32,000 nt of DNA from Clostridioides sp. ES-S-0010-02 (lineage in GTDB: Bacteria > Bacillota > Clostridia > Peptostreptococcales > Peptostreptococcaceae): the NCBI RefSeq assembly GCF_020641055.1, contig NZ_CP067345.1, one strand, 5' to 3'. Every line of letters begins with the position of its first letter. Position 1 is the stretch's first letter. The notes under the pieces were generated by a model. It was not told where the DNA came from, made no database searches, and saw only the letters and a program-made list of their open reading frames with translations. Position numbers and translations under genes: made by a program. Of the stretch, positions 4,601 to 28,085 are shown one piece after another.

Positions 4601-5206
4601 TTATTTTTTTATTACATTTCCCATTTTTTTATAAAGTGGTAATGTTACTAAAGATATTATCACAGCTTTTAGTACATTAAATGGAGCTATCATCCAAATT
4701 ACAAAAGTAAATAGGTCATGAATCTTAGGATTTATAGCTGAACCTAACCCTATTATAGCATCTAGTCCCATAAATTGACCATAAAGTGGTAACATTACAA
4801 AGTAATTTAACACTGAGCCAATTATAGTCATAGCTATTGTTCCTAATACAAATCCAATTAATATGCCTTTTAAATCTTTACTTTTCTTATATGAATAACA
4901 AAGTATCATTACATAAGAACCACCAATTAATATATTTGCAAACTCTCCTACTCCTCCAGTTGTTGTTGCTGTAATCGCTTGTAGTATATTTTTTACTACA
5001 ACTATTCCAAATCCAACTAATGGTCCTAAAGACATCCCTCCAAATATTGCTGGAATATCTGATAAGTCAATTTTTAAGAAATCTGGAAATATACCTGGTA
5101 TTGGTGCTTGAATAAACATTAGTAAATAAGATATTGCTGATAAAATTGACATTACTACTAAAGTTCTTGTTGAAATCATATTACTTCTTTTTGCTGTACT
5201 TTGCAT
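4601..5206 (-). CDS. ribU: ECF-transporter S component, riboflavin transporter RibU
   Basis: 201-aa polytopic membrane protein of the ECF S-component type, directly downstream of an FMN riboswitch. AGGAGGA RBS before the ATG at 5206. Confidence 0.85.
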   Translation of the reverse strand: MQSTAKRSNMISTRTLVVMSILSAISYLLMFIQAPIPGIFPDFLKIDLSDIPAIFGGMSLGPLVGFGIVVVKNILQAITATTTGGVGEFANILIGGSYVMILCYSYKKSKDLKGILIGFVLGTIAMTIIGSVLNYFVMLPLYGQFMGLDAIIGLGSAINPKIHDLFTFVIWMIAPFNVLKAVIISLVTLPLYKKMGNVIKK

Positions 5207-5285: not shown

Positions 5286-5335
5286 ATGGATATAGTTTAA
5301 ACAAACTAAAATAAACTTATTTATATTCCATAAAT

Positions 5336-5452
5336 ATCTTCTCTCATCCAGACTTTACTGTCGGCTTTGGAATTTCACCAAATCAACCACATAAGTAGTT
5401 CGCGGGCTATACCGCCGGTAGGGAATCTCACCCTGCCCCGAAGATCTTCTTT
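5336..5452 (-). promoter_or_regulatory. FMN riboswitch (RFN element) aptamer
   Basis: Minus strand reads AGAAGATCTTCGGGGCAGGGTGAGATTCCCTACCGGCGGTATAGCCCGCGA...GATTTGGTGAAATTCCAAAGCCGACAGTAAAGTCTGGATGAGAGAAG. This matches the conserved RFN core blocks. Confidence 0.92.
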
Positions 5453-9110: not shown

Positions 9111-10218
9111 TTAAACTGTCTTATTCATTTTTAAGTATTCGTTGATAAACAAGTCTATATTTCCATTCATCACACTATCTACATTTCCAAACTCAGCATT
9201 TGTCCTATGGTCTTTGACTAACTTATATGGTTGGAAAACATAGGACCTAATTTGGCTACCCCACGTTATTTGTGAGTATTTGCCTTGTATATCTTCTATT
9301 TTTTCCTTTTGCTCTAATTCTTTTAACTCTATCAATTTTGCCATCAAAAGTCTCATAGCTCTATCTTTATTTAAATGTTGAGACCTTTCATTTTGACACT
9401 GAACCACTACACCAGTAGGAATATGTGTTATTCTAACAGCTGAATCAGTTGTGTTTACATGTTGTCCTCCAGCACCAGACGCTCTATATGTGTCTATCTT
9501 CAAATCTGATGAATTAATTTCTACTTCTATATTTTCATCTAACTCTGGTGTTACATCTATAGAAGCAAATGAAGTATGTCTCTTTCCTGATGGGTCAAAT
9601 GGAGATATTCTTACCAATCTATGAACCCCTTTTTCACTTTTTAAATATCCATAAGTGTTGGTTCCTTCTACAAGAATTGTAGCTGTCTTTATTCCCGCTT
9701 CAGGGTCTGATATTATATCTAAAAGCTTAACTTTATAACCCTTACCTTCTGCCCATCTTATATACATTCTTAAAAGCATCTGAGCCCAATCTTGAGCATC
9801 TAGACCCCCAGTTCCAGCATTTATAGATAATATAGCATTATTTTTATCATACTCGCCATTTAAAAGAGTTTTTATTTTCATCTCAGATAATTTTTCTTCT
9901 ATTGATTCTATAGACATTTCTATATCCTTTTCAACAGAATCATCCTCTTCTTCTAGGCCTATTTCAATCAATACTTCTACATCTTCTAATAAGTTTTTTA
10001 GACTTTCATATTCATCTATAGTTTCTTTTAAAGCTTTGTTTTCTTGAAGTACTTTTTGCGCTACTTCATTGTCATTCCAAAAATCTTGTTTATTTATCTT
10101 CTCTTCATTAATTTTTATCTTTTCCATCAATGAAGCTACGTCAAAGAGAAACCCTCAATTCTTCTAAATTTGAAGCTATTTGCTCCACACTATGTCTATA
10201 CTCTTGTATCTTTAACAT
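9111..10218 (-). CDS. prfB: peptide chain release factor 2, made by a programmed +1 frameshift
   Basis: Frame 0 runs from the ATG at 10218 and reads MLKIQEYRHSVEQIASNLEELRVSL, ending at an in-frame TGA (10141-10143). The +1 frame continues DVASLMEKIKINE... into the 339-aa ORF, which carries the SPF tripeptide and the GGQ motif (RASGAGGQHVN). Confidence 0.93.
10140..10146 (-). promoter_or_regulatory. prfB +1 frameshift site CTT TGA C
   Basis: Exact CUU UGA C heptamer with an upstream SD-like GAGGG (minus strand TTGAGGGTTTCTCTTTGAC). Confidence 0.9.
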
Positions 10219-13039: not shown

Positions 13040-13591
13040 TTATTCATGTTCTATTATACCATATCCGCCATTATGACGTTTATAAACTACAGCTATTTCA
13101 TCTGAATCTATATTCTTGAACATATAGAAATCATGTCCTACTAATTCCATTTGTAATACAGCTTCTTCTTCGCTCATTGGCTTAACACTAAATTTCTTAC
13201 GTCTTTGAATTACTATATCTTGATTTTCATCTTCATAATCTTCTTGTTCATCTGCTAGATTTATCTCTGCATCTTGGAATCTTATACTCTTATTGTCTTG
13301 ATGCTTATCTTGTAATCTCTTTTTATATTTTTTTAATTGTTTGCTTAATTTATCATATACAACATCTATAGCTGTGTATAAATTCTCCTGCATATCTTCT
13401 GCTCTAATTATAGGACCATTTACAGTAGCTATTGTTACTTCTATTTTTTGTCTTGTTTTTTTAGCACTTACTGTAACCTTTACATCAGTGTCTGGATGAA
13501 TGTAATTATCTAACTTACTTAACTTGCTTTCGATTTTATTTTTTATTGCATCAGTTAATTCGATTTGTTTTCCAGATATAATTATGTTCAT
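13040..13591 (-). CDS. hpf: ribosome hibernation promoting factor, long form (RaiA/YvyD family)
   Basis: MNIIISGKQIELTDAIK N-terminal S30AE domain, acidic linker, and a C-terminal dimerisation domain (KPMSEEEAVLQMELVGHDFYMF). ATG at 13591 with a GAAGGGAGA RBS. The ORF-track TTG at 13609 is probably spurious. Confidence 0.92.
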   Translation of the reverse strand: MNIIISGKQIELTDAIKNKIESKLSKLDNYIHPDTDVKVTVSAKKTRQKIEVTIATVNGPIIRAEDMQENLYTAIDVVYDKLSKQLKKYKKRLQDKHQDNKSIRFQDAEINLADEQEDYEDENQDIVIQRRKKFSVKPMSEEEAVLQMELVGHDFYMFKNIDSDEIAVVYKRHNGGYGIIEHE

Positions 13592-13644
13592 AAGTACATC
13601 TCCCTTCAATTATGCCAGTATAAGAAAATTTATACTTAAATAAT

Positions 13645-14156: not shown

Positions 14157-14831
14157 TTATTTCGAAATTATATCCACTAATTGTTTTAGCTTTTGTCTGT
14201 CTATATCTTCAAATGGATTTTTATCTATTCTAACAGCTGTACCAAAATGAAAATTATTTGCCTTAGTTACTCCCTTTATTTCAACTATATTATTAAAATT
14301 AAGACCTCCACCTAAAAGAATTTTTATATTATTAGAGTTAAGCATCATATCTTTTATAATTTTTATATTCTCTCTTATACTTCCCTTTCCCCCTGACGTT
14401 AATATATTTGTAATTCTGTCATAATTCTTTAAAAGATTAACACTTTCTATTGTATTTGATTCATCTATTGCTCTATGAAATGTAACATCAAGATTATCGC
14501 AATATTGCAACAAAAAATTTAAATTTTCTTCATCTATATTATTATTCTTGTCTAACATTCCAAATACAACTCCATTAGCTCCAATCTTTTTGACTGTATT
14601 TATATCTTTTAACATTATATTTATGTCTTCTTTACTATATACAAAGCTTTTAGCATGTGGTCTTATCATTACGTTCACAGGTATCTTTACACTGTTAACA
14701 ACACTTTCTATAAGTCCAAAACTTGGTGTTAGCCCTCCTTCAGTTAAAGCACTAACTAATTCTATTCTATCTGCGCCACAATCTTCTATAATCTTAGCGT
14801 CTTCTACTGTCATTCCTATTATCTCTAGCAT
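14157..14831 (-). CDS. cutC: CutC-family TIM-barrel protein (annotated copper homeostasis protein)
   Basis: N-terminus EDAKIIEDCGADRIELVSALTEGGLTPS and a TFHRAID motif, both typical of CutC. Last gene of the PTS operon. The upstream gene's stop is 2 nt from the cutC start. Confidence 0.85.
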   Translation of the reverse strand: MLEIIGMTVEDAKIIEDCGADRIELVSALTEGGLTPSFGLIESVVNSVKIPVNVMIRPHAKSFVYSKEDINIMLKDINTVKKIGANGVVFGMLDKNNNIDEENLNFLLQYCDNLDVTFHRAIDESNTIESVNLLKNYDRITNILTSGGKGSIRENIKIIKDMMLNSNNIKILLGGGLNFNNIVEIKGVTKANNFHFGTAVRIDKNPFEDIDRQKLKQLVDIISK

Positions 14832-14833
14832 AA

Positions 14834-15886
14834 CTACTCCTTTGCTAATTCATATATTGCATTTGAAAATATCTTTGCATTTAAGATTATATCATCTATA
14901 TCCATATATTCGTCAGGATTATGTGCTATTCCTTTTTGTCCTGGAAACGAAGGTCCAAATGGAACTATATTTGGCATTACTTTTGCATATGTACCTCCAT
15001 TAGTTGTTACTGGAGTACCATCTAATGATGTTACTCTTTCATAAGCTATTTGAAGTTTTTTAACAAGCTCACTATCCTTATCAAAATATACAGGATTAAA
15101 ATTAGAAATTACTTCTATCTCTGTACCATTGGGAAAATTAGATTTTATTTCATCTAAGACATCTTCTAGTTTATAACTAAATTCATATTTTACCTTTATC
15201 TCCAGTATTATGTAACTATTCTCTTTATGTAACTCTTGATTTGTGACAATCACCTTTTCAGACATATTTTCTATAAAGCTTAGAAATGTATCTTCCTTAT
15301 AGTTACAGTTATTTTTGATTATAATTTTCGCCATACCTTTTTCACCATATACAACAGGATATTTACAATCTGGTGTGAACCCCATTATAGGAGGTTTTTC
15401 CTTTTTTAAATAATATGGTATATCTTTAAATCCACTTTCTTCATTTGTGCCAAAAATTATCCTAACTTTTTTATCTAACTTTAAACCTAATTCCTTAATA
15501 ACATATAATCCATATAAAGCACACATTATAGGTCCTTTATTATCTAATACCCCTCTACCATAGATTTTTCCATTATATATTTCTCCTCCATAAGGTTGAT
15601 ATATCCAATTTTCCCCTTCATGTACTACATCTACGTGGCCAATTACACAGATATAATCTTCGCTATCTCCATATTCTGCATAACCAATATAATTGTCTAA
15701 GTTTCTAACTTTAAATCCTAATTTTCTTGAAATTTCTAGTGCTTTATTGAGTGCTTTTCCTACCTTTTCGCCAAAAGGGAAGTCATTTTCTGACTCCCCT
15801 TCAACGCTAGGTATTTTTACAATATCTACAATATCACTTAATAAATGTTCTTTTATCTCGTCTACTTTATTGTTTATAATATTCAT
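14834..15886 (-). CDS. M20A metallo-dipeptidase, PepV/Sapep-like with a shortened lid
   Basis: GHVDVV, GRGVLDNKG, GTNEESG, GFTPDCKYPVVYGEKG and a C-terminal HNPDEYMDIDD motif, collinear with PepV. At 350 aa it is about 120 aa shorter than typical PepV. Confidence 0.8.
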   Translation of the reverse strand: MNIINNKVDEIKEHLLSDIVDIVKIPSVEGESENDFPFGEKVGKALNKALEISRKLGFKVRNLDNYIGYAEYGDSEDYICVIGHVDVVHEGENWIYQPYGGEIYNGKIYGRGVLDNKGPIMCALYGLYVIKELGLKLDKKVRIIFGTNEESGFKDIPYYLKKEKPPIMGFTPDCKYPVVYGEKGMAKIIIKNNCNYKEDTFLSFIENMSEKVIVTNQELHKENSYIILEIKVKYEFSYKLEDVLDEIKSNFPNGTEIEVISNFNPVYFDKDSELVKKLQIAYERVTSLDGTPVTTNGGTYAKVMPNIVPFGPSFPGQKGIAHNPDEYMDIDDIILNAKIFSNAIYELAKE

Positions 15887-15939
15887 AAAAATCTCCTTTT
15901 AAATATTAAAGACTCTACTTTACTGCATAAATACAAACT

Positions 15940-16899
15940 TTATTCACTTACTTCTATTGGAGCCTTTATCCTAGCTTCATATGCTTCCATCCACTCGTTT
16001 GACACAACCTTATGTATAGTTTTACCATCTATTCTATTTGATATATACACTGTAGGTGCTTCTGCTTTAGTAGCTACTGAGAATGTAAAGTCAGCTATGT
16101 TTGTAGCTACTCCCCATTCTCCTTTATTATTCATAGCAACTAATGATAAGTCTCCAGCTTTTCCTCGTCTTTTGATAAGTTGTTCATCTAACTCATTTAC
16201 TGCTATATCACATGCCTCTTGTGGATGTTTTCCTTCTTTCATAAGTCTAACTATCTCATATGATATACACCCTTTCATCAAATCTTCTCCAAGACCAGTA
16301 GCTGTAGCCCCTCCTATGTTACTATCAACGAAAAACCCTGAACCAGATAGTGCAGAATCTCCTATTCTACCTCTTTTCTTCATAAATAGACCACTTGTTG
16401 AGGTTGCTGCACACATCTTTCCATCTCTATCTAAAGATATCATCCCAACAGTATCATGACCAGCATATGGGCTTAATCCTTTATCTAAAGTTTCTTTTTT
16501 TCTCTTCTTATAATGTAGTTTCGCTCTATCTGTTAACATATTTTTTCTTTCAAATCCATTTTTATGGGCATATTCTTCAGCTCCTATTCCAACTAAGAAA
16601 TTATTCACTTTCTCATAACTTAGTTTTCTAGCTATGCTGACAGGGTTAGAATAATCTCTTATACCTGCAACTGCTCCTATATCTAATGTGTTTCCATCCA
16701 TAAATGCAGCATCAAGTTCTACTTCACAATTTTCATTTGGAAGTCCTCCATATCCAACCGATTTATAGAATGGATAATCTTCGACTCTTCTTACAGCAAG
16801 TTCTACAGCATCTCCTGCTTCCATTCCTTTTTCTAAATGTTCTGATGCTTCAGTGATTCCTTCTATAGCCATTCTCCATGTTGCTATCATTCCCCACAT
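15940..16899 (-). CDS. Ntn-hydrolase of the asparaginase-2 family, glycosylasparaginase (aspartylglucosaminidase)-like / isoaspartyl peptidase
   Basis: GYGGLPN, autoprocessing site GHDTVGMISLD (Thr nucleophile), TSTSG...KRGRIGDSALSGSGFF, and GATATGLGEDLM. I prefer the ATG at 16899 (MWGMIATW) with an AAGGAGGG RBS 9 nt upstream. Confidence 0.85.
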   Translation of the reverse strand: MWGMIATWRMAIEGITEASEHLEKGMEAGDAVELAVRRVEDYPFYKSVGYGGLPNENCEVELDAAFMDGNTLDIGAVAGIRDYSNPVSIARKLSYEKVNNFLVGIGAEEYAHKNGFERKNMLTDRAKLHYKKRKKETLDKGLSPYAGHDTVGMISLDRDGKMCAATSTSGLFMKKRGRIGDSALSGSGFFVDSNIGGATATGLGEDLMKGCISYEIVRLMKEGKHPQEACDIAVNELDEQLIKRRGKAGDLSLVAMNNKGEWGVATNIADFTFSVATKAEAPTVYISNRIDGKTIHKVVSNEWMEAYEARIKAPIEVSE

Positions 16900-16992
16900 A
16901 TCAGAAAATCCCTCCTTAATTATAGAAACTCTATCCACATACTTTAATGTAAATAATATTTTACTTAAACCTGTCCCCTAGTAAAGTGTTAA

Positions 16993-17511
16993 TTAATAAC
17001 AAAATTCTTCTTTCATTAAAGTTATGTCTTCTTTATTTGCTATTGAATTTGCTAATTTACATATATTGTTTAGTGAATCATTAAGACCAATTCCACCTTT
17101 TTTAGGTGTCTTAACTATACATATATCATTTTTGTATTCGTTTATTACGTATGTATTTTCTTCTGACATAGCTGCAAAAGCTGGTATATCTGTTTTATTA
17201 TTTATATTTTTAGATAATATTGCTGACATCTTAGAAAAATTTTCATAGTTAAAACTTGGTCCACAAATTACTACATCAGGATTTAACTTTTTAACCATAG
17301 CTATCATTTTATTTGTCACTTCTTCTTCATTGTTTATAAAAAATTCATCCCCACAGAAAAGTGTCGCTATTACTTTAGATTCTTTTAAAAATGGTTCCAT
17401 CATTACACCTGGACCTAATGGACTTGATTTTCCAGCAGGAGGTATATTGCTTTTTTCTTTCCCACCTGCACCTGCTTGTATTTGATCCAATATCATAACT
17501 ATTTTCTTCAT
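16993..17511 (-). CDS. stand-alone protein resembling the N-terminal domain of GrdB (glycine/sarcosine/betaine reductase component B family)
   Basis: The stretch QIQAGAGGKEKSNIPPAGK...LGPGVMMEPFL...ATLFCGDEFF...LNPDVVICGPSFNYENF is collinear with the GrdB N-terminus as I recall it (INQFFAGIGGEEKADI...GPG...CGDSYF...PDLFIAGPAFNAGRYG). Only 172 aa, with no selenocysteine region. Confidence 0.6.
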   Translation of the reverse strand: MKKIVMILDQIQAGAGGKEKSNIPPAGKSSPLGPGVMMEPFLKESKVIATLFCGDEFFINNEEEVTNKMIAMVKKLNPDVVICGPSFNYENFSKMSAILSKNINNKTDIPAFAAMSEENTYVINEYKNDICIVKTPKKGGIGLNDSLNNICKLANSIANKEDITLMKEEFCY

Positions 17512-17521
17512 AATTTTCCTC

Positions 17522-18856
17522 CTATAATACTAAATCATCAAAAGATATATCATCATCTTCCTCTTCAACATTTGTTTTTTCTTCTTTTAAATATTGTTTA
17601 TCTAACATCTTTATAAATGGCATGTACATAAATATTCCTAGTACAAGAAGTATTATTTGTAATAAAGCACCTTGCCATCCTGTTGTTAGAAATCCAGAGA
17701 ATATAATTGGAGTTGTCCATGGTAATTGAACTCCATTTGTAAGTGGTACTAATCCTGCTGACATACAGAAATAGGCTATTATTATGTTTATTGTTGGAAC
17801 TATTGCAAATGGTATCAATAATATTGGGTTAAGCATTATTGGTAGACCAAATATTAATGGCTCATTTATTCCAAATATCCCTGGTAAAATTGATAATTTA
17901 CCCATTGATTTTATACGTTTACTTTTGCATATAAGTAACATAGCTATAATTAAGGATAGTGTACTACCTGCCCCACCAAATGTTGCAAACATATCCTGGA
18001 ATTGACCAGTTATTATGTTTGGTATTTTTGAACCAGCTTGAAAAGCCGCTAAATTTTCAGCTGATAAAATTTTTAATATTGGATTATAGACAGCTCCAAC
18101 AACACTACTACCATTTATTCCAAAGAACCAGAATAAATGTAAGAATATATAAGCTATTGCCATAGCACCTAAACTATTTCCTAATTTTAATAATGGCATT
18201 TGTAAAAACTTAAATATAAATTCATGTATACTTCCATATGGTGTAGCTTCAAAAGCAATCTTAACTAAAAAGAAAACTACCATAACTATTGCACTTGGTA
18301 TTAATGCAGCAAATGATTTTGAAACAGTTGGAGGAACTCCATCTGGCATCTTCAATGTCCACCCTTTTTTGACAACTACTGCAAATAACTTAACAGATGT
18401 TATTGCGGTTATCATTCCTACAAACATTCCCTTAGAACCCATCCAACCTAATGGGATACCAGTTACCATATAGACTGCCTTTGTTCCTTCTGGTGTATAT
18501 GGTATTACAAATGGTGTAACTATAAAAAAGGCGACTATTGCAACTGCTGCTGATGCAATTGGGTCTACATCTATTTGTTTAGCATAAGAGTAACCAATTC
18601 CTAAAACTGCAAGTAAAGTCATTACTTCAAAAGTCGCTATAGTTGGCTGTTGTAATTTTACTGCCCAATCTGGACCAAAAATTTGACCTACAAATTCGTC
18701 CCATCCTTTTATTGGGAAGTTTGCTACTAATAAAAATAATGACCCTATTATCAATAATGGTGATGATACTAAAAAACCATCTCTAATTGCAATTAATAAT
18801 TTATTTTTACCTATTTTTTCAGCCAACGGCATAAGTATTCTTTCCAATTTATTCAT
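17522..18856 (-). CDS. PTS lactose/cellobiose-family EIIC permease
   Basis: 444-aa polytopic membrane protein with a CelB/ChbC-like N-terminus (PLAEKIGKNKLLIAIRDGF). Flanked by the matching EIIB and EIIA genes. Confidence 0.9.
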   Translation of the reverse strand: MNKLERILMPLAEKIGKNKLLIAIRDGFLVSSPLLIIGSLFLLVANFPIKGWDEFVGQIFGPDWAVKLQQPTIATFEVMTLLAVLGIGYSYAKQIDVDPIASAAVAIVAFFIVTPFVIPYTPEGTKAVYMVTGIPLGWMGSKGMFVGMITAITSVKLFAVVVKKGWTLKMPDGVPPTVSKSFAALIPSAIVMVVFFLVKIAFEATPYGSIHEFIFKFLQMPLLKLGNSLGAMAIAYIFLHLFWFFGINGSSVVGAVYNPILKILSAENLAAFQAGSKIPNIITGQFQDMFATFGGAGSTLSLIIAMLLICKSKRIKSMGKLSILPGIFGINEPLIFGLPIMLNPILLIPFAIVPTINIIIAYFCMSAGLVPLTNGVQLPWTTPIIFSGFLTTGWQGALLQIILLVLGIFMYMPFIKMLDKQYLKEEKTNVEEEDDDISFDDLVL

Positions 18857-18894
18857 CTATCCACCCTCATTTCTCAGTATCTTTTTACTATATT

Positions 18895-19221
18895 TTAAGC
18901 TTGTTTAGATTTTATTAATTTTATAGCAAGCTTTAGTACTTTTTCTCCATTCATAGTTCCATAATCAGTTTCATTTATTATATCCACAGGTTTTCCTTGA
19001 GCTTCAAACTTTGGCTTTAACTCCTTTAGCATGTATTTAACTTGAGGTCCTAACAATATACAATCTGGATTCTTCTCTGCAACTATCTTATCAATTTCTG
19101 CTATTGGAAATGCTTCTACTTCTATTGGTAAATTGTGTTCATCTGCTACTTTCTGCATCTTTCCTGCAAGTAAGCTTGTTGACATACCAAAACTACAAAA
19201 TAAATATACTTTTCTCTTCAT
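18895..19221 (-). CDS. PTS lactose/cellobiose-family EIIB
   Basis: 108 aa, with phospho-Cys motif LFCSFGMSTSLL. Confidence 0.9.
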   Translation of the reverse strand: MKRKVYLFCSFGMSTSLLAGKMQKVADEHNLPIEVEAFPIAEIDKIVAEKNPDCILLGPQVKYMLKELKPKFEAQGKPVDIINETDYGTMNGEKVLKLAIKLIKSKQA

Positions 19222-19247
19222 TATCTTAAATCCCCCTTAATTACTTT

Positions 19248-19556
19248 TTATTTTAATTTTTGAATTTCTTTTCTTAGCACTATCATTTCTTTTATAAGGT
19301 TTCTTTCACTCATACAAGTCATTAAATGGTCTTGAGAGTGAATTAGTAAAATAGATATATCTGATTTATTTCCTCCTGCTTCCTTTTGTATAAGTTCTGT
19401 TTGTACTTTATGTGCTTTTAATATTTCTTCATTTGCACTTTCGATTAATTCATCAGCCTTTTCAAAATCGTTTTCCTTTGCACAATCAAGAGCTTCATAA
19501 AGCATAGATTTTGCATTTCCAGCATGAATTATAATCTTTAATACTATTTCTTCCAT
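19248..19556 (-). CDS. PTS lactose/cellobiose-family EIIA
   Basis: 102-aa helical protein with HAGNAKS and the active-site region IHSQDHLM. Confidence 0.9.
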   Translation of the reverse strand: MEEIVLKIIIHAGNAKSMLYEALDCAKENDFEKADELIESANEEILKAHKVQTELIQKEAGGNKSDISILLIHSQDHLMTCMSERNLIKEMIVLRKEIQKLK

Positions 19557-19595
19557 TTCTTCCTCCTAAATTACTTGTCTACTTTTAACTGATTT

Positions 19596-19608
19596 CTATC
19601 TGATAGAT
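19596..19608. promoter_or_regulatory. perfect 6-1-6 palindrome TCTATC-N-GATAGA in the PTS operon leader
   Basis: Read directly at 19596-19608, about 40 nt upstream of the EIIA ATG. Confidence 0.3.
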
Positions 19609-19622
19609 ATATAATATCTTAT

Positions 19623-19673
19623 AAAAACAAAAAAACATGCACAACTTTTTCCACTACATGGAAAATTTTGTGC
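19623..19673 (-). terminator. terminator after the PRD regulator gene; may double as an operator
   Basis: Minus strand GCACAAAATTTTCC-auguagu-GGAAAAAGTTGTGC (12 of 14 bp pair), followed by ATGTTTTTTTGTTTTT. Confidence 0.65.
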
Positions 19674-19695
19674 TTATTCACATTTTGATATAAAT

Positions 19696-21600
19696 TTATA
19701 TAAGAATATTTTTTATATTTTTAATATCACAATTACTTAGCACATCAAGCATATTTTCATCTTCTGTCAATTTAGATATTTCTTTGAATAATTCTCTAAA
19801 TACTTTTCTATCATCCTCTTTTTTATAAGCTAATAAAAGTATAATCTTTATGTATTTTCCATTTCTAATTTTTATTGGTGTTTTCAATCTTGCAAAACAT
19901 AAGACAGATTGTTTTATATACTTCATATCTCCATGAGGAAATAATATTCCTTTCCCAACATTAGTTGGATATGCCTTTTCTCTTTCTATAATAGAATTTA
20001 AATATTCTTTATCTGCATAATGCTTTTCGATTAATAAATTAGTTAAGTATGCTATAGCCTCATAAATATCATTATGTTCTAGCTCTCTTATTAAATAATC
20101 AGACATCATTAATCTATTCATAAGTTTATATGATGTATCTTTTTCTTTTATTTTGTTGGTAAATTCTTTGAGTTTATTTTCATCTTCATCAGTAAATAGT
20201 GGTGTTGTTATAAAAATTGGCTTTTGTACATTTTCATATTCTTGAAATGCAATTATAAAATCTATCATTTTATTGAAGTTATCTCTTCTTAAATCTTCTT
20301 CCCTTAGTGTTTCAACTATTTCTATATTATTAAATCTCTTTTCTATCTTTACTTTTAGTAACATACTTACTCCAAAACTAAATGGGCACACGATACTTGC
20401 TTTTTTAGTTGATTCTCTCTTATTACTTTTTCTTTCTAAAGATGTTTGAAAGTGAAGAGTAAGATAACCTATTTCATCTTCAGTTATTTGTGTTCCTTTT
20501 TGCTCAATTCCTATTGAATTTGAAATTACTGTAAATAAAAAACAAAATTTATTTTTTATATTATCTAAAAGTGGATTTTCCAAATAAACGTTACTTTGCA
20601 TTTGGTGCATTGTAACATTTAAGTGACATATTAATTGGTCATAAAGCAATATATCATTATTAAAGTTTATACCCGATTCTTCTGATACCAGATTTATAAT
20701 TCTTTTTGTATACTCTGATAATTCTTCATTAAGGTATAGTGATTTTTTAGTATCTTTACTATTTATTTGTTTATTCATGCCAAGTATTAGTGATTCTATA
20801 AATAATTTTTCTTCATGGTTTAATACTATAGATAGACTGGATTTCAACTCATTTTCTATATCTAATATAAGAATTTCTAACTTTAATTCTTTTTTAATAT
20901 TTACTATTTCAAAAGAATTCCCCAACCTTATTCGTATGATATTTATAAGTAAAAATAACATCAATTGCCTGAATGAAACATCTGTAAGTCTTATATCCAT
21001 TTTATCTTCTATTATAGACATTATATTTTTGACAACTATTATGTCTACTATATGGAAATATTCTATTTCATCCATGTTTAGTCTGTATTTATCTATATAT
21101 TTAAATAAAAATGCCACTAACATTATTCTTATGTCTTTCTCATTTCCCTCAATACATATACCACTGCCCGTTTTAGTTGAAATTTTCAAATTATAATTAC
21201 TTAATTCTACTGATAATGTATTTATTTCTTCCCTAACAATATTTTTATTTATATACAATTTATTGGACAAATCATTTAAGGTAATCTTCTTATTATTGCA
21301 AAGTAATAGATTCAATATCTCAACTTGTTTATGGAGTTCACTATTTACTCTTTTAACTTCACCTCTTAACTTCTGGTTTACTATTATTTTATCTGTATCA
21401 TCTCCACTAAACTTAATTCCTATTTTAGGCTTTCTTTTAATATAAGCACTACAAAAAGTAGACAACCATTCATCAATGTACTTACAATCATTTCTTATTG
21501 TTCTCTCTGAGCACTCAAAATCGTTAGCAATGTCATTGATATTTATAAATTCTTCTTTCAATAGCAATACTGTCAACAAGTTCTCTTGTCTTTTGTTCAT
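19696..21600 (-). CDS. PRD-domain transcriptional activator of the LicR/MtlR type (HTH-Mga-PRD-PRD-EIIB-like-EIIA-like)
   Basis: N-terminal wHTH (RQENLLTVLLLKEEFININDIANDFECSERTIRNDCKYI), two PRD-like regions, an EIIB(Gat)-like Cys (ASIVCPFSFGVSMLL), and a C-terminal EIIA(Mtl/Fru)-like GILFPHG. No AAA+/sigma-54 module. ATG at 21600 with an AAAGAGGTGA RBS. Confidence 0.85.
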   Translation of the reverse strand: MNKRQENLLTVLLLKEEFININDIANDFECSERTIRNDCKYIDEWLSTFCSAYIKRKPKIGIKFSGDDTDKIIVNQKLRGEVKRVNSELHKQVEILNLLLCNNKKITLNDLSNKLYINKNIVREEINTLSVELSNYNLKISTKTGSGICIEGNEKDIRIMLVAFLFKYIDKYRLNMDEIEYFHIVDIIVVKNIMSIIEDKMDIRLTDVSFRQLMLFLLINIIRIRLGNSFEIVNIKKELKLEILILDIENELKSSLSIVLNHEEKLFIESLILGMNKQINSKDTKKSLYLNEELSEYTKRIINLVSEESGINFNNDILLYDQLICHLNVTMHQMQSNVYLENPLLDNIKNKFCFLFTVISNSIGIEQKGTQITEDEIGYLTLHFQTSLERKSNKRESTKKASIVCPFSFGVSMLLKVKIEKRFNNIEIVETLREEDLRRDNFNKMIDFIIAFQEYENVQKPIFITTPLFTDEDENKLKEFTNKIKEKDTSYKLMNRLMMSDYLIRELEHNDIYEAIAYLTNLLIEKHYADKEYLNSIIEREKAYPTNVGKGILFPHGDMKYIKQSVLCFARLKTPIKIRNGKYIKIILLLAYKKEDDRKVFRELFKEISKLTEDENMLDVLSNCDIKNIKNILI

Positions 21601-21642
21601 ATATATCACCTCTTTATGATTCAATCTAAATTTATTATATAT

Positions 21643-21681
21643 AAAAAAGAGCTACACATAAAAACATTATGCTAGCTCTCT
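21643..21681 (-). terminator. intrinsic terminator of the ncRNA gene
   Basis: Minus strand AGAGCTAGC...GTAGCTCT hairpin, followed by TTTTTTAT. Confidence 0.7.
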
Positions 21682-21687
21682 TTTAAT

Positions 21688-21899
21688 ATGATATTTAGCT
21701 GACCTGGTCTTTGACCCCACACTCGCCTACTGGAGGGTTCGCTTGGGTTCGCCGCACTACTACTCTCTCTCGATTTTATTATCGGTAGGTCTTACTTCTA
21801 AGCCGCACCATGCTCATTAACCCAATTTTTAGTGTTAACTTACGTGGATCCTTTTGCCTGCGACTGGCTTGGACTTTCAACCACAGACCTAAATATCAC
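21688..21899 (-). ncRNA. about 212-nt structured ncRNA, probable raiA-motif RNA
   Basis: A GC-enriched island in an AT-rich, ORF-free spacer. An 11-bp closing stem joins the 5' end GTGATATTTAG (21889-21899) to the 3' end CTAAATATCAT (21688-21698). It has its own consensus promoter and terminator, and lies directly downstream of comFC in the same orientation as hpf. That is the reported genomic context of the raiA motif. Confidence 0.55.
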
Positions 21900-21905
21900 T
21901 TATTC

Positions 21906-21934
21906 ATTTTAATATTTTAAAGTAAAATTGTCAA
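21906..21934 (-). promoter_or_regulatory. near-consensus sigma-A promoter driving the ncRNA
   Basis: TTGACA (21929-21934), exact 17-nt spacer, TAAAAT (21906-21911). The predicted TSS of about 21899 coincides with the first base of the closing stem. Confidence 0.7.
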
Positions 21935-21943
21935 TATATAAGA

Positions 21944-22726
21944 TTATTCCATAACGTAGTTGTCATTTGCTCTTGTAAGCAACGTCATTACAAAAACCTT
22001 ATTAACACCAGATAACTTTAAAATCTTAGATATTTCATTTGTTGTCACGCCAGTTGTAAATATATCATCTATCAAAAGTACATTTTTATTATTTATTAAT
22101 TTAATATTTTTGTTAACAGCAAACACATTTTTTAATTCCTTTTTTCTCTCTTGTTTACTTAACTTATAAAGCATCCTTGTATTTTTTTCCCTGGATATAC
22201 AATCTAACATTGGAACATTGATTATTTTACTCAAACTCAAAGCTATTTTTTGTGCTTGGTTAAATCCTCTTTTATTAAGTCTTTTCTTATGAAGTGGAAC
22301 AAATAATATATAATCAAACTTCACATTTTCTAAATCCAACTTTTCTTTCATTATTTGCGCTATGTATTTAGCCATAAATGTTTTTTGATTGTACTTTAAT
22401 CCTAATATTATTTTTTTAGTTATCTCGTTGTATTCAATACAGGAGATTGACTTGTCAAAATAAAAACTTTTATCAAAACAATAGCTACATCCTTCAATAA
22501 ATTCTTTTTCAAGTGAATGATGTATTATTGGCTTTCCACATTTTATACACCCATTTAGTATAAAATTCATTTCATTAAAACAACTTTTACAGACTGAATA
22601 GGTATTAGTTTTTTTTATTGATTTATCACAAATTATGCAATTTATATTTTCAGGATAAATAAAATCCAGACATTTATTAATTAGATTTCTAAGACTCTTA
22701 ATAAAATTATCATTGCATATTTTCAT
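21944..22726 (-). CDS. comFC: ComF-family protein ComFC (zinc-finger plus phosphoribosyltransferase domain)
   Basis: N-terminal Cys clusters (CIICD...CKSC, CIKCG...CSYC) and a C-terminal PRTase motif VLLIDDIFTTGVT. Confidence 0.88.
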   Translation of the reverse strand: MKICNDNFIKSLRNLINKCLDFIYPENINCIICDKSIKKTNTYSVCKSCFNEMNFILNGCIKCGKPIIHHSLEKEFIEGCSYCFDKSFYFDKSISCIEYNEITKKIILGLKYNQKTFMAKYIAQIMKEKLDLENVKFDYILFVPLHKKRLNKRGFNQAQKIALSLSKIINVPMLDCISREKNTRMLYKLSKQERKKELKNVFAVNKNIKLINNKNVLLIDDIFTTGVTTNEISKILKLSGVNKVFVMTLLTRANDNYVME

Positions 22727-25219: not shown

Positions 25220-26317
25220 TTAATTTACCTCAGATTTATTTTCCTTGTATCCTTCAGTTTTGGTAATTCTTCGATAAAGCATACATAGTAAAATTAAAAT
25301 TCCCATATAACCTGTATATGGATATAATGTCCCTACAAGCTTATCAAATGGTAATAATCCTCCTATACATGCTAATATGCTTACTACTACTGTTATTATT
25401 TTAAATTTAGGATGGTCATCTTCCACAAATCTATTAGTTACTGACCATAATAATGGTACAGCTGTAGTATATATTCCTAATAAAAGTACTACTGAGAATA
25501 AAATACCTATAATTGGAGATATCTTGTCAGCTAAATAAAGAGCTGGTATTTCTTTTGTGTATATATTTCCTACATCTGAAAGTAATGCTAGATTCATCAT
25601 TATAGCAGCTGCCATAAGGGCTACTCCACCTACTATACCTCCCCATACAGCATCTTTCTTATTTTTTGCTGAAGCTCCCATTCCAGTTAAAAATGTTATT
25701 ACTATTATTACATTATAGCAAGTATAAAGTACACCTGAGAAATATCCATTTGATGTAGCAGTTTTAACGTTTAGACTATCAATTATAGCTCCTGCATTTG
25801 ATAAAGCACCAATATTACTAAATAGACTAATTGCTCCTACTAAAAGTGTAAATATTATTATTATAGGACCTATATTACCTAGTATCTTTGAAAGCCTTGT
25901 CAAACCTAGAGATACAGTTATTAGGGAAACGATTGCCATACCAATTCTACCTACATATGGATTTAGACCATAATACTCTGATAATGTAGCTCCTGCTCCT
26001 GCAATCATTATTACTAATGTACCAAACAAAAACAATGGTCCAAACCACTCAAAAAATGTACCAAGATATTTTCCACAATATACCTGATAAATCTTTATTG
26101 GTTCTTTAAGCTTTAATTCTCTCCCTTTTTCTATAACTTCTGCTCCAAACCATGAGAATAATACCATAGATATTATTCCTCCTATAATTCCAGCATACCC
26201 ATAAAACGTAAAGAATTGTACTATCTCTTGACCAGTTGCAAATCCAGAACCTATTACAGTCGCTACATATGCTCCAGCAAAACTTATAACCATTTTGATG
26301 TTTATTTTATCCGACAT
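25220..26317 (-). CDS. YkvI-family polytopic membrane protein (putative transporter)
   Basis: About 11 predicted TM segments. N-terminus FAGAYVATVIGSGFATGQEIVQFF is typical of the YkvI family. I prefer the ATG at 26317 (GGAGGGAG RBS 8 nt upstream) over the GTG at 26323. Confidence 0.75.
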   Translation of the reverse strand: MSDKINIKMVISFAGAYVATVIGSGFATGQEIVQFFTFYGYAGIIGGIISMVLFSWFGAEVIEKGRELKLKEPIKIYQVYCGKYLGTFFEWFGPLFLFGTLVIMIAGAGATLSEYYGLNPYVGRIGMAIVSLITVSLGLTRLSKILGNIGPIIIIFTLLVGAISLFSNIGALSNAGAIIDSLNVKTATSNGYFSGVLYTCYNVIIVITFLTGMGASAKNKKDAVWGGIVGGVALMAAAIMMNLALLSDVGNIYTKEIPALYLADKISPIIGILFSVVLLLGIYTTAVPLLWSVTNRFVEDDHPKFKIITVVVSILACIGGLLPFDKLVGTLYPYTGYMGILILLCMLYRRITKTEGYKENKSEVN

Positions 26318-26589
26318 ACACACTACTCCCTCCTAAATAAAATAAATTTTTTAATAAGTAAAATTTAATGTAAGTTTATTAAGACTATATTAGTTGTATT
26401 ATTGATGCTTTTCAATATTTTTTGAATTATTTAACATTACTTAACGAAATCTTAACCAGTTTTTAACATATTCCTTCTACTATGTATTAATTTAATGCAA
26501 TATTATATAATGAAATATATTAATCTCACTAAATAATGTTTATTTATTATATGATTTAAAATTAGTATTTATTAAATATATTTAATCAT

Positions 26590-26651: not shown

Positions 26652-27845
26652 TTATTCACCTAATGCGTCTTTTCTTAATTGTTCTACTTTATCAGTTCTT
26701 TCCCATGGTAAATCTATATCCGTTCTACCAAAGTGACCATAAGCAGCAACCTTTTTGTAAAGAGGCTTTCTTAAATCTAAATCTCTTATTATTGCTCCTG
26801 GTCTTAAATCAAAGTGTTTGTTTACTAGTTCAACAAGCTTCTCTTCTGAAACTTTACCTGTCCCAAAAGTATCTATAAATATAGATAATGGTCTAGCTAT
26901 ACCTATAGCATATGCAAGTTCTATCTCACATTTATCTGCAAGTCCAGCCGCAACAATATTTTTAGCAACATATCTAGCAGCATAAGCAGCAGATCTATCA
27001 ACTTTTGTAGGGTCTTTTCCTGAAAAAGCTCCTCCACCATGTCTAGAATATCCTCCATAAGTGTCTATTATTATTTTTCTTCCTGTAAGACCTGTATCCC
27101 CTTGAGGTCCTCCTATAACGAATCTGCCTGTTGGGTTTATATAAATTTTAGTATCTTCATCAAGTAATTCAGCTGGTATAACTGATTTTATAACATGCTC
27201 AATTAAATCTTGTCTTATCTTATCATTTGATACTGTTTCACAATGCTGAGCTGATATAAGAACTGTATGTACTCTTACAGCTTTATTTCCTTCATATTCA
27301 ACAGTAACTTGAGTTTTTCCATCTGGTCTTAAATAATCAACTAAACCTGTCTTTCTAACTTCTGTAAGTCTTCTTGATAATTTATGAGCTAATGATATTG
27401 GAAGTGGCATTAATTCTGGAGTTTCATTACATGCAAATCCAAACATTATACCTTGGTCTCCAGCTCCTACTTTTTCTATTTCTTGTTCTATTTCTTCTCC
27501 AGTCTTACTTTCTAGACCTTCATCAACTCCCATAGCTATATCTCCAGATTGTTCATCTATAGAAGTTATAACTGCACAAGTGTCACAGTCAAATCCATAT
27601 TTTGCTCTTGTATATCCAATTTCTTTTACTGTTTCTCTTACTAATTTAGGTATATCTACATAAGCAGATGTACTTATTTCTCCAGCTACTAAAACTAAGC
27701 CTGTTGTTACTGTAGTTTCACAAGCTACTCTAGATTGTGGGTCTTTTTCTAACAATGCATCTAATATTGAATCTGATATTTGGTCACATATCTTATCAGG
27801 ATGTCCTTCTGTAACTGATTCTGACGTAAATAAATGTCTTGCCAT
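26652..27845 (-). CDS. metK: S-adenosylmethionine synthase
   Basis: [32 protein letters not shown] and [16 protein letters not shown] motifs. 397 aa. Confidence 0.98.
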
Positions 27846-27920: not shown

Positions 27921-28085
27921 AAATAAAAAACCTCTCCTTATAAGAAGAGGTTAATAATCGTAATCGCATACTAATTAACTGACCTCATCTTTCAAGACTT
28001 TTGTCTTGTAGGAATTAGCACCTTTTCCCATTTGGGTGGTTGCTGGGCTTCACAGGGCCTATCCCTCAGCCGCTCTTGATAAGGT
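27921..28085 (-). promoter_or_regulatory. SAM-I (S-box) riboswitch with terminator, metK leader
   Basis: Minus strand reads CTTATCAAGAGCGGCTGAGGGATAGGCCCTGTGAAGCCCAGCAACC...AAAGGTGCTAATTCCTACAAG...GAAAGATGAGG. Then comes the terminator AACCTCTTCTTATAAGGAGAGGTT plus TTTTTATTTT (27921-27952). Confidence 0.92.

Follow-up and report, generated by a model that had tools for sequence, protein, structure and literature searches.

The spacer between a ComF-like phosphoribosyltransferase gene (comFC) and a PRD regulator gene in Clostridioides sp. ES-S-0010-02 (contig NZ_CP067345.1, of which a stretch of 32,000 nt, here called the window, was analyzed) raises the question of what it encodes, how it is expressed, and by which mechanism its product might act. 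An earlier note, made from the sequence alone, had proposed that the spacer holds an independently transcribed structured RNA, probably a raiA-motif RNA. We can now state with high confidence that window positions 21934-21639 (minus strand, as are the parts of the RNA gene, its two neighbours, both riboswitches, prfB and the ORF between metK and recD2 given below) are a self-contained gene for a raiA-motif noncoding RNA, the orthologue of ModT (CDIF630nc_001) of C. difficile, in a divergent Clostridioides lineage. The raiA locus is already known: the motif is a curated Rfam family, and the orthologous locus has been characterized in strain 630. RaiA/ModT is among the most widespread large bacterial RNAs of unsolved biochemical function, and it affects sporulation and toxin in a major pathogen. 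The window copy adds little to this, because any Rfam annotation would flag it and because, for the 630 orthologue, the ends have been mapped, isoforms described, the structure probed, and knockout phenotypes recorded; its modest value is that of a natural variant showing which parts are free to vary.

The identity of the RNA was addressed by scanning the window against all 4227 Rfam families, followed by a permissive re-scan of 21300-22300 at E ≤ 1. The raiA family (RF03072) matched at 21897-21690 with 184.1 bits (gathering score 101.3; E 3.2e-47), and the match is full length, spanning model positions 1-209 of 209 without truncation. The Infernal search with the Rfam raiA model that the earlier note had called for thus returned a significant match, and the proposed family identity is borne out. 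In 21300-22300 no family besides raiA was found at E ≤ 1, neither 6S RNA (RF00013) nor any riboswitch family, and the 6S RNA and riboswitch alternatives are therefore excluded. That the match lies beyond chance follows decisively from the Rfam E value of 3e-47; RNAfold of the whole region gave z = -3.6. The spacer measures 343 bp with the regulator starting at ATG 21600 (the choice of the gene callers) or 319 bp if it starts at TTG 21624, and contains no open reading frame (ORF) longer than 36 amino acids, in line with the ORF-free spacer of 320 bp described before. The guanine-plus-cytosine (GC) content of the raiA core is 46.6%, against 29.3% in the window and 23-27% in the flanks; GUGCGGC occurs twice in the RNA, and the GAACCC and GGGGUC tracts are also present, all of them where the earlier note had located its GC-enriched block. 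Release 15 of Rfam types raiA as “Cis-reg; riboswitch”, although two independent genetic studies show trans action; this label is out of date, and pipelines that copy it will misdescribe the raiA gene.

The published raiA architecture was mapped onto the window following Soares 2024 (PMC10861870) and the cryo-electron microscopy (cryo-EM) work (PMC12968392; 9ELY and others). The 208-nt core (21690-21897) contains P1a/b/c, P3a/b, P4-P8 and the pseudoknots PK1 and PK2; P2 is absent, which places the RNA in the P2-less, C. acetobutylicum-type subtype. All 58 of the 58 published raiA pairs, both pseudoknots included, are standard pairs in the window. For comparison, at least 120 raiA loci were retrieved from a species-representative genome collection by a core pattern, and 95 distinct RNAs were aligned. 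This alignment is a subset of relatives, and the search pattern fixed many 5'-strand bases at RNA positions 9-54, so that invariance there is in part a product of the search; the pattern left the 3' partners and every N position free, yet they pair and covary. Of the cells in these 95 relatives, 95.2% are paired, compared to 31-42% once partners are shifted by 1-3 columns. In 29 pairs both partners change, and none of 500 shuffles reached the observed score.

P1 is built of three segments, P1a (RNA positions 1-9/200-208), P1b (12-14/197-199, CUG/CAG), and P1c (15-18/190-193), separated by the bulges G10 U11 and, on the 3' strand, G194 G195 U196; a three-segment P1 with GU and GGU bulges is a described feature of raiA RNAs (PMC12968392). 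P1b and P1c are 100% paired in the alignment, pair 18-190 covaries (UA 85, AU 8), and P1a pairs 6-8 covary strongly. The 11-bp stem that had been proposed to join the 5' and 3' ends is present at 21899-21889/21698-21688, nine of its pairs being the P1a of the family, extended here by U-A and G.U. The bases of the GAA(A) junction (U19 G20 A21 A22 A23 and A187) are at the expected positions in columns that are invariant in the alignment; this tetraloop-like junction, closed by U19-A23 and completed by an A of the PK2 linker, is typical of the P2-less subtype, and its tertiary contacts are predicted. It is followed by a kinked P3, in which P3a (24-27/47-50) and P3b (30-32/40-42) flank an A-rich asymmetric loop (A28 A29 / A43-A46); pair 27-47 of P3a covaries (GC 84, CG 11; C-G in the window).

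PK1 is formed by GUCGCA in the apical loop of P3b (21859-21864) and UGCGGC at 21807-21802 (RNA positions 34-39/91-96, six standard pairs); 100% of its cells are paired in the alignment, and three of its pairs change on both sides. PK2 (88-89/185-186, 2 bp, with the linker between P4 and P1c) is paired in 97.9% (UA 87, CG 6). Between PK1 and P6 runs the single-stranded linker UUAGAAGUAA (21792-21801, RNA positions 97-106), which fits the family signature UUAGA(C/A)GUAA and whose columns are invariant or nearly so; in cryo-EM structures the raiA linker is solvent-exposed, and it has been proposed as a protein-binding site (PMC12968392). The remaining helices are P4 (51-54/178-181), P5 (55-64/77-86), P6 (109-113/168-172), P7 (114-117/124-127, 4 bp as in C. 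acetobutylicum), and P8 (131-135/162-165 and 141-142/156-157, flanking the E-loop strands UAGUA/GAAC), with several covarying pairs each in P5, P6, P7 and P8. P5 lies one register off the Rfam consensus alignment, in which it shows three non-canonical pairs; these are a one-base register artefact, since the shifted register yields six clean pairs, and the helix forms a 6+4-bp hairpin.

Two further pairings were considered and rejected. The second helix of the earlier note, between UAGGUCU (7-13) and AGACCUA (106-112), is complementary here, but its bases belong to P1a/P1b and P6 and the pairing is not conserved (78.8% against 77.9% expected from column composition, with the central pair missing in 75 of the 95 sequences). 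The second copy of GUGCGGC, as an alternative partner in PK1, is available in the window and C. difficile CD160 only among the 95 sequences, and was treated as coincidental.

The RNA is preceded by a -35 box TTGACA (21929-21934), which follows the comFC stop codon at a distance of 10 nt, and, 17 nt past this box, by a -10 box TAAAAT (21906-21911), which together match the consensus at 11 of 12 positions in a promoter scan and are both unchanged in CD160. In Romboutsia, Tepidibacter, Alkaliphilus and Peptostreptococcaceae relatives the corresponding elements are TTGACA or TTGATA and TAAAAT or TATAAT, about 17 nt apart, with the -10 box ending 7-9 nt before P1. The 630 primer FFO-926, which covers the promoter, matches the window at 42 of 43 positions; the modT promoter of 630 has been described as SigA-type, with one transcription start site (TSS) and two 3' ends (PMC10117727, PMC11706538). 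The promoter read by the earlier note at 21934-21906 is credible because its positions are conserved in relatives and because the 5' end has been experimentally mapped in 630; the consensus score was not used as evidence.

The ends of ModT in 630 were taken from the supplementary oligo table of PMC11706538 and mapped onto the window. The 5' end of 630 ModT, GUGAUAUUUAGG..., maps to 21899 with 22 of 22 matches, as do the 5'-end oligos od1192, od1195 and FFO-1235 (GTGATATTTAGGTCTGTGGTTG) at 21899-21878. The predicted TSS, by orthology with 630, is thus a G at 21899, 7 nt past the -10 box, exactly on the first base of the closing stem, where the earlier note had put it. The equivalent of the short isoform, ModT(S), would be 215 nt long (21685-21899), as the 3' primer FFO-1088 maps to 21685-21712 (27 of 28); the short form of 630 ends in ...CAUAUU. 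Directly behind it lies an intrinsic terminator (21643-21684), with an A-tract, a stem of about 14 bp with an interruption, and U6 (RNAfold, about -20 kcal/mol), which agrees with the terminator expected directly after the RNA. A simple terminator scan found no sites; this is a false negative caused by a one-base bulge in the stem, as RNAfold gives a hairpin and the long form of 630 ends there. The primer FFO-1089 for this long form maps to 21639-21674, and the 3' end ...UUUUUUAUAU falls at 21639 (30 of 33), which gives a predicted long form of 261 nt, compared to 258-259 nt in 630, where the loop of the terminator has 3 nt fewer. Another 630 oligo, FFO-1024, has its best site at 21226-21245, outside comFC, and was ignored as probably spurious.

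By orthology with 630, the locus would make two isoforms, one of about 215 nt ending just before the hairpin and one of about 261 nt. The sequence prerequisites of the isoform pattern of C. difficile as well as of C. perfringens and P. sordellii are present (the terminator is directly 3' of P1), and the GC contents of the two forms (45.6% and 42.8%) compare with the published 45.6% and 42.6% of ModT. The transcript of about 212 nt in the earlier note is near the short form, whereas transcription up to the terminator gives about 261 nt. In all close relatives a hairpin and U-tract follow P1 within 1-6 nt, their stem sequences being unrelated; that the positions are kept while the terminator sequences are unrelated argues that selection acts on these elements and less on their sequence as such. 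The independent transcription suggested before is in keeping with this conservation and with the 630 ends that map onto the window.

How strongly the RNA itself is conserved can be judged from its surroundings. The ComF-like protein was found with exactly this sequence on 15 contigs, and the best 8 of these 15 include GCA_020658455.1, which is 99.8% identical to the window at the DNA level over 20 kb; the 208-nt core is identical in 7 of these best 8 assemblies, and the eighth contig ends inside the RNA. Compared to CD160, the core has 2 differences (99% identical) and the surrounding 8 kb are 88.5% identical. Ranked by identity to CD160, the 215 nt of ModT(S) (99.1%) are followed by the promoter region (95.5%, with both hexamers intact), the terminator part of the long form (91.3%, differing in the loop and at the edges), recD2 (89.5%), the PRD regulator (87.1%), and comFC (83.9%). 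Thus, 2 of 215 positions of the RNA have changed against a divergence of about 11-16% in flanking genes, while the terminator loop drifted, which points to very strong purifying selection on the whole fold. The two substitutions are at RNA position 85 (G here, U in CD160), which has U56 of the P5 base as its partner, and at position 189 (G here, A in both CD160 and 630), beside P1c. The coding DNA of the window shares about 88% identity with both 630 and CD160, and primers for 630 that lie in flanking genes match it at about 85-90%. Since cryptic Clostridioides genomospecies have an average nucleotide identity of 89-94% to C. difficile (PMC8241443 and a 2025 preprint), the source lineage is probably one of these genomospecies and not C. 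difficile in the strict sense, as judged from sequence divergence.

The closest known system is ModT/RaiA RNA of C. difficile 630 (Lamm-Schmidt 2021, PMC10117727; Lence 2024, PMC11706538), at an orthologous locus in which a ComF-like gene, the RNA, and a phosphotransferase system (PTS) antiterminator follow each other as they do here. The two share the 5' end (22/22), the short-form length of 215 nt and its GC content, the promoter hexamers, and a terminator after P1 that gives a long isoform; the 630 probe FFO-67 matches at 29 of 30 positions. Wherever the 630 sequence is comparable, the core differs at one base, the G189 mentioned above, which makes a U.G instead of a U-A beside P1c. The terminator loop is 3 nt longer here, and the flanks of the two lineages, at about 88% identity, differ at the level of cryptic genomospecies. 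With the raiA family as a whole (RF03072; Weinberg 2017; Soares 2024; cryo-EM structures 9ELY and others) the window RNA shares all defining helices, pseudoknots, bulges, the GAA(A) turn, the linker and the E-loop; like the C. acetobutylicum RNA it lacks P2 and contains P8. It departs from the family in its neighbourhood: hpf (raiA) is not the next gene and is found 8 kb downstream, past an inserted PTS block.

In 630, the abundance and stability of ModT during growth are comparable to those of housekeeping RNAs, and the RNA is lost at stationary phase unless hexoses are present (PMC11706538); it sediments as a small ribonucleoprotein (RNP) in Grad-seq fractions 3-5 (PMC10117727). Deletion of modT delays the transition to stationary phase and lowers the expression of the regulons under sigma-B and sigma-H; dccA and cyclic di-GMP (c-di-GMP) are raised, which blocks sporulation, toxin is raised, and 75 of 90 tRNA loci as well as 5S rRNA stay elevated. 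The phenotypes are complemented in trans from the pyrE locus, and the deletion has no polar effect on CDIF630_00250 or CDIF630_00251 (all PMC11706538). Trans action and phenotypes have also been shown in C. acetobutylicum (PMC10861870). By orthology with 630, the window RNA would be a trans-acting, abundant and stable RNA, needed for timely entry into stationary phase, normal sporulation (via dccA and c-di-GMP), and restraint of toxin.

For the mechanism, we tentatively regard a trans-acting RNP scaffold or sponge as the most likely, with a confidence that falls somewhat short of an even chance. From the predicted start of the sigma-A-type promoter at 21899, the first 215 nt fold into the compact raiA architecture; the terminator hairpin after P1 would give the form of about 261 nt, and the form of about 215 nt would end just before this hairpin. 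The rigid core would serve as a scaffold or sponge that offers protein partners, with KhpA and KhpB as candidates, the invariant single-stranded linker UUAGAAGUAA and a P1 arm of fixed length, and the rise and fall of the RNA level would titrate a regulator of the growth transition. This idea derives from the lower dimethyl sulfate (DMS) reactivity of ModT in vivo than in deproteinised samples, from its sedimentation as an RNP, from the cryo-EM picture of raiA RNA as a rigid monomer (a triangular core with P1b/P1c contacts, a length-conserved P1a arm, and an exposed 10-nt linker; PMC12968392), and from the binding of raiA RNA by KhpA-KhpB in vitro with a dissociation constant of about 2 uM (PMC12968392).

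Several points weigh against this account. RNA immunoprecipitation sequencing (RIP-seq) of KhpB in 630 did not recover ModT. The in vitro binding by KhpA/KhpB is low-micromolar, similar for all four RNAs tested, and smears at high protein ratios, and this binding could thus be non-specific. No specific partner gene co-localizes with raiA RNA (PMC10861870). As for the gene itself, its promoter score is not rarer than chance in DNA this rich in AT (2 sites with at least 11 of 12 matches in the window, 3.9 in shuffles), and the TSS, two isoforms and phenotypes of this lineage are transferred from 630, whose flanks are about 88% identical.

Other readings of the spacer and its RNA have to be weighed against a scaffold. 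The complex and deeply conserved fold resembles riboswitch aptamers, and the RNA might be a trans-acting ligand sensor whose conformation or availability changes on binding of a small molecule, either c-di-GMP or some other growth-phase metabolite; the changes in DMS reactivity between exponential and transition phase, the raised c-di-GMP of the modT deletion, and the Rfam type would suit such a sensor. The cryo-EM structures, however, are unlike known c-di-GMP riboswitches and no ligand pocket was reported in them (PMC12968392), the change in c-di-GMP runs via dccA transcription, and no ligand has been found since 2017, so we consider this mechanism, which is compatible with the identity call, unlikely. 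Somewhat less probable still is a ribozyme or RNA-processing cofactor that acts on other RNAs, e.g., in tRNA/rRNA turnover as cells enter stationary phase. Of the large conserved bacterial RNAs with a known function, most are catalytic (PMC10861870), tRNA loci and 5S rRNA stay elevated in the modT mutant, and a link to translation is suggested by the synteny with hpf, prfB and secA, but no cleavage activity has been reported, samples in in-line probing and cryo-EM show a stable intact monomer, and the RNA sediments in light fractions and not with ribosomes.

A cis-acting leader or riboswitch for the downstream PRD/PTS regulator would be suggested by the common strand, by the start codon only 38 nt past the terminator, by the order of structured RNA and terminator, which resembles an expression platform, and by the Rfam label. 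Its probability is very small: a cis role is contradicted by the trans-complementation from pyrE and the lack of polar effects on CDIF630_00250/CDIF630_00251 in 630, and by the adjacency of the regulator being a recent, lineage-specific insertion, as hpf is the downstream gene in all non-Clostridioides relatives. Moreover, distance and orientation to the next gene vary across the family (PMC10861870), and the terminator competes with no part of the aptamer-like fold but merely follows P1. We give just as little credence to a canonical base-pairing small RNA that uses a short seed to repress or activate mRNAs. An RNA that is intergenic, transcribed independently and trans-acting, and whose loss changes many genes, could be one, but here conservation extends over the whole 208 nt across phyla instead of a short seed, almost every base is engaged in structure, no association with Hfq or KhpB was found by RIP-seq, and the abundance rivals that of rRNA. 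That the spacer is GC-rich by chance or holds a decayed, non-functional copy has only the promoter score in its favour; with a covariance-model match at E 3e-47, every helix intact, and an RNA that is 99% conserved between flanks diverged by 11-16% and identical in the 7 independent assemblies listed, this can practically be dismissed. What probability remains beyond the scaffold, the sensor and the ribozyme belongs to something not yet proposed, plus the small shares of the cis-leader, base-pairing and chance readings.

Two other RNAs can be compared with ModT in their way of working only. Like 6S RNA, ModT is abundant, stable, growth-phase-dependent, trans-acting, and of a housekeeping type, and both probably act via protein binding rather than base pairing; there is no relationship in sequence or structure, and no Rfam 6S match in 21300-22300. 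6S RNA builds up during stationary phase and imitates open promoter DNA; ModT, by contrast, declines at that stage, and its fold is compact and pseudoknotted. OLE RNA is likewise a large, highly conserved structured RNA of Bacillota with an RNP role and without known catalytic activity, but it is about 600 nt long, dimeric, and encoded alongside dedicated partner proteins, whereas raiA RNA is monomeric and without a co-localized partner gene.

The gene order around the RNA is spoIID, spoIIID, mreB, fabZ, metK, recD2, the comF-like gene, the RNA, the PRD regulator, PTS IIA/IIB/IIC, GrdB-like, asparaginase, M20 peptidase, CutC, hpf, secA, and prfB, which is the C. difficile arrangement (CDIF630_00252, i.e., CD630_01350, is the PTS IIA gene). 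Members of the raiA family lie downstream of comFC in 74% and upstream of raiA/hpf in 66% (PMC10861870), a common but non-defining trait. The earlier note had described raiA RNAs as typically lying between comFC and raiA/hpf; here comFC is indeed upstream, but the next gene is the PRD/PTS regulator, and hpf (13040-13609) follows 8 kb downstream behind the PRD-regulator/PTS block, an exception that has been published for C. difficile as well (PMC11706538). A tblastn survey of synteny over at least 120 loci gave comFC upstream of the RNA in 34 out of 88 cases and hpf downstream of it in 20 out of 79; because this under-detects divergent proteins, the counts are not a frequency and only close relatives were used. 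Romboutsia, other Peptostreptococcaceae, Tepidibacter and Alkaliphilus have the canonical order recD2-comFC-RNA-hpf-secA, with the RNA directly before hpf, which makes the block of about 8 kb an insertion specific to Clostridioides that separates the RNA terminator from hpf; it was found only in the two Clostridioides genomes examined.

The inserted block (14157-21600) begins with the downstream neighbour of the RNA, an HTH-Mga-PRD-EIIA regulator (19696-21600; Pfam and gene calls) that lies outside the RNA gene and is the first gene of a PTS/glycan-utilization block. It further comprises a lactose/cellobiose-type PTS IIA/IIB/IIC, an M20 peptidase, CutC, a GrdB-related non-selenoprotein oxidoreductase (NCBIfam GrdB_like_no_Se), and an Asparaginase_2 gene of the isoaspartyl/glycosylasparaginase type, a content that suggests, from family assignments, that glycosylated asparagine or a substrate of the chitobiose type is used. 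The predicted long-form 3' end (21639) and the regulator ATG (21600) are only 38 nt apart, and AAGAGGTG is the ribosome-binding site of the regulator. A perfect TATAAT, retained in CD160, stands at 21639-21634 directly after the terminator U-tract, with a weak -35 region (TTTATG); either this weak promoter or read-through from the very strong modT promoter may drive the regulator. That the modT unit has thereby gained a secondary role in cis, in which terminator read-through or the TATAAT box would set basal expression of the regulator, seems improbable; if true, such coupling would tie carbohydrate use to the growth-phase and glucose-dependent signal governing ModT.

The upstream neighbour (21944-22726), the orthologue of CDIF630_00250, carries the Pfam domains DZR_2 and Pribosyltran, and stays well under the NCBIfam cut-off for ComF (93 vs 233 bits). 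Its orthologue in 630 is annotated merely as a putative phosphoribosyltransferase, with an annotated 3' untranslated region that overlaps ModT, and by the identities to CD160 given above it is the fastest-diverging gene of the neighbourhood.

Elsewhere in the window, a SAM-I riboswitch (RF00162, 94 bits) at 27982-28085 precedes metK (26652-27845) in the standard arrangement, and an FMN riboswitch (RF00050, 123 bits) at 5332-5449 lies upstream of a 201-aa membrane protein (4601-5206); this protein, with a weak match to an ECF-transporter permease family, is probably part of a riboflavin transporter. The prfB gene (9111-10217) contains the classic programmed +1 frameshift site of RF2 at 10140-10146 (...AGGGUUUCU CUU UGA C...); its ATG stands at 10217, and the main ORF picks up again at about 10130, which is why the ORF list begins prfB at a TTG. 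Between metK and recD2, an ORF of 367 amino acids (25220-26323) without a Pfam or NCBIfam match is kept in position in all same-lineage assemblies, where it is called as 365 amino acids.

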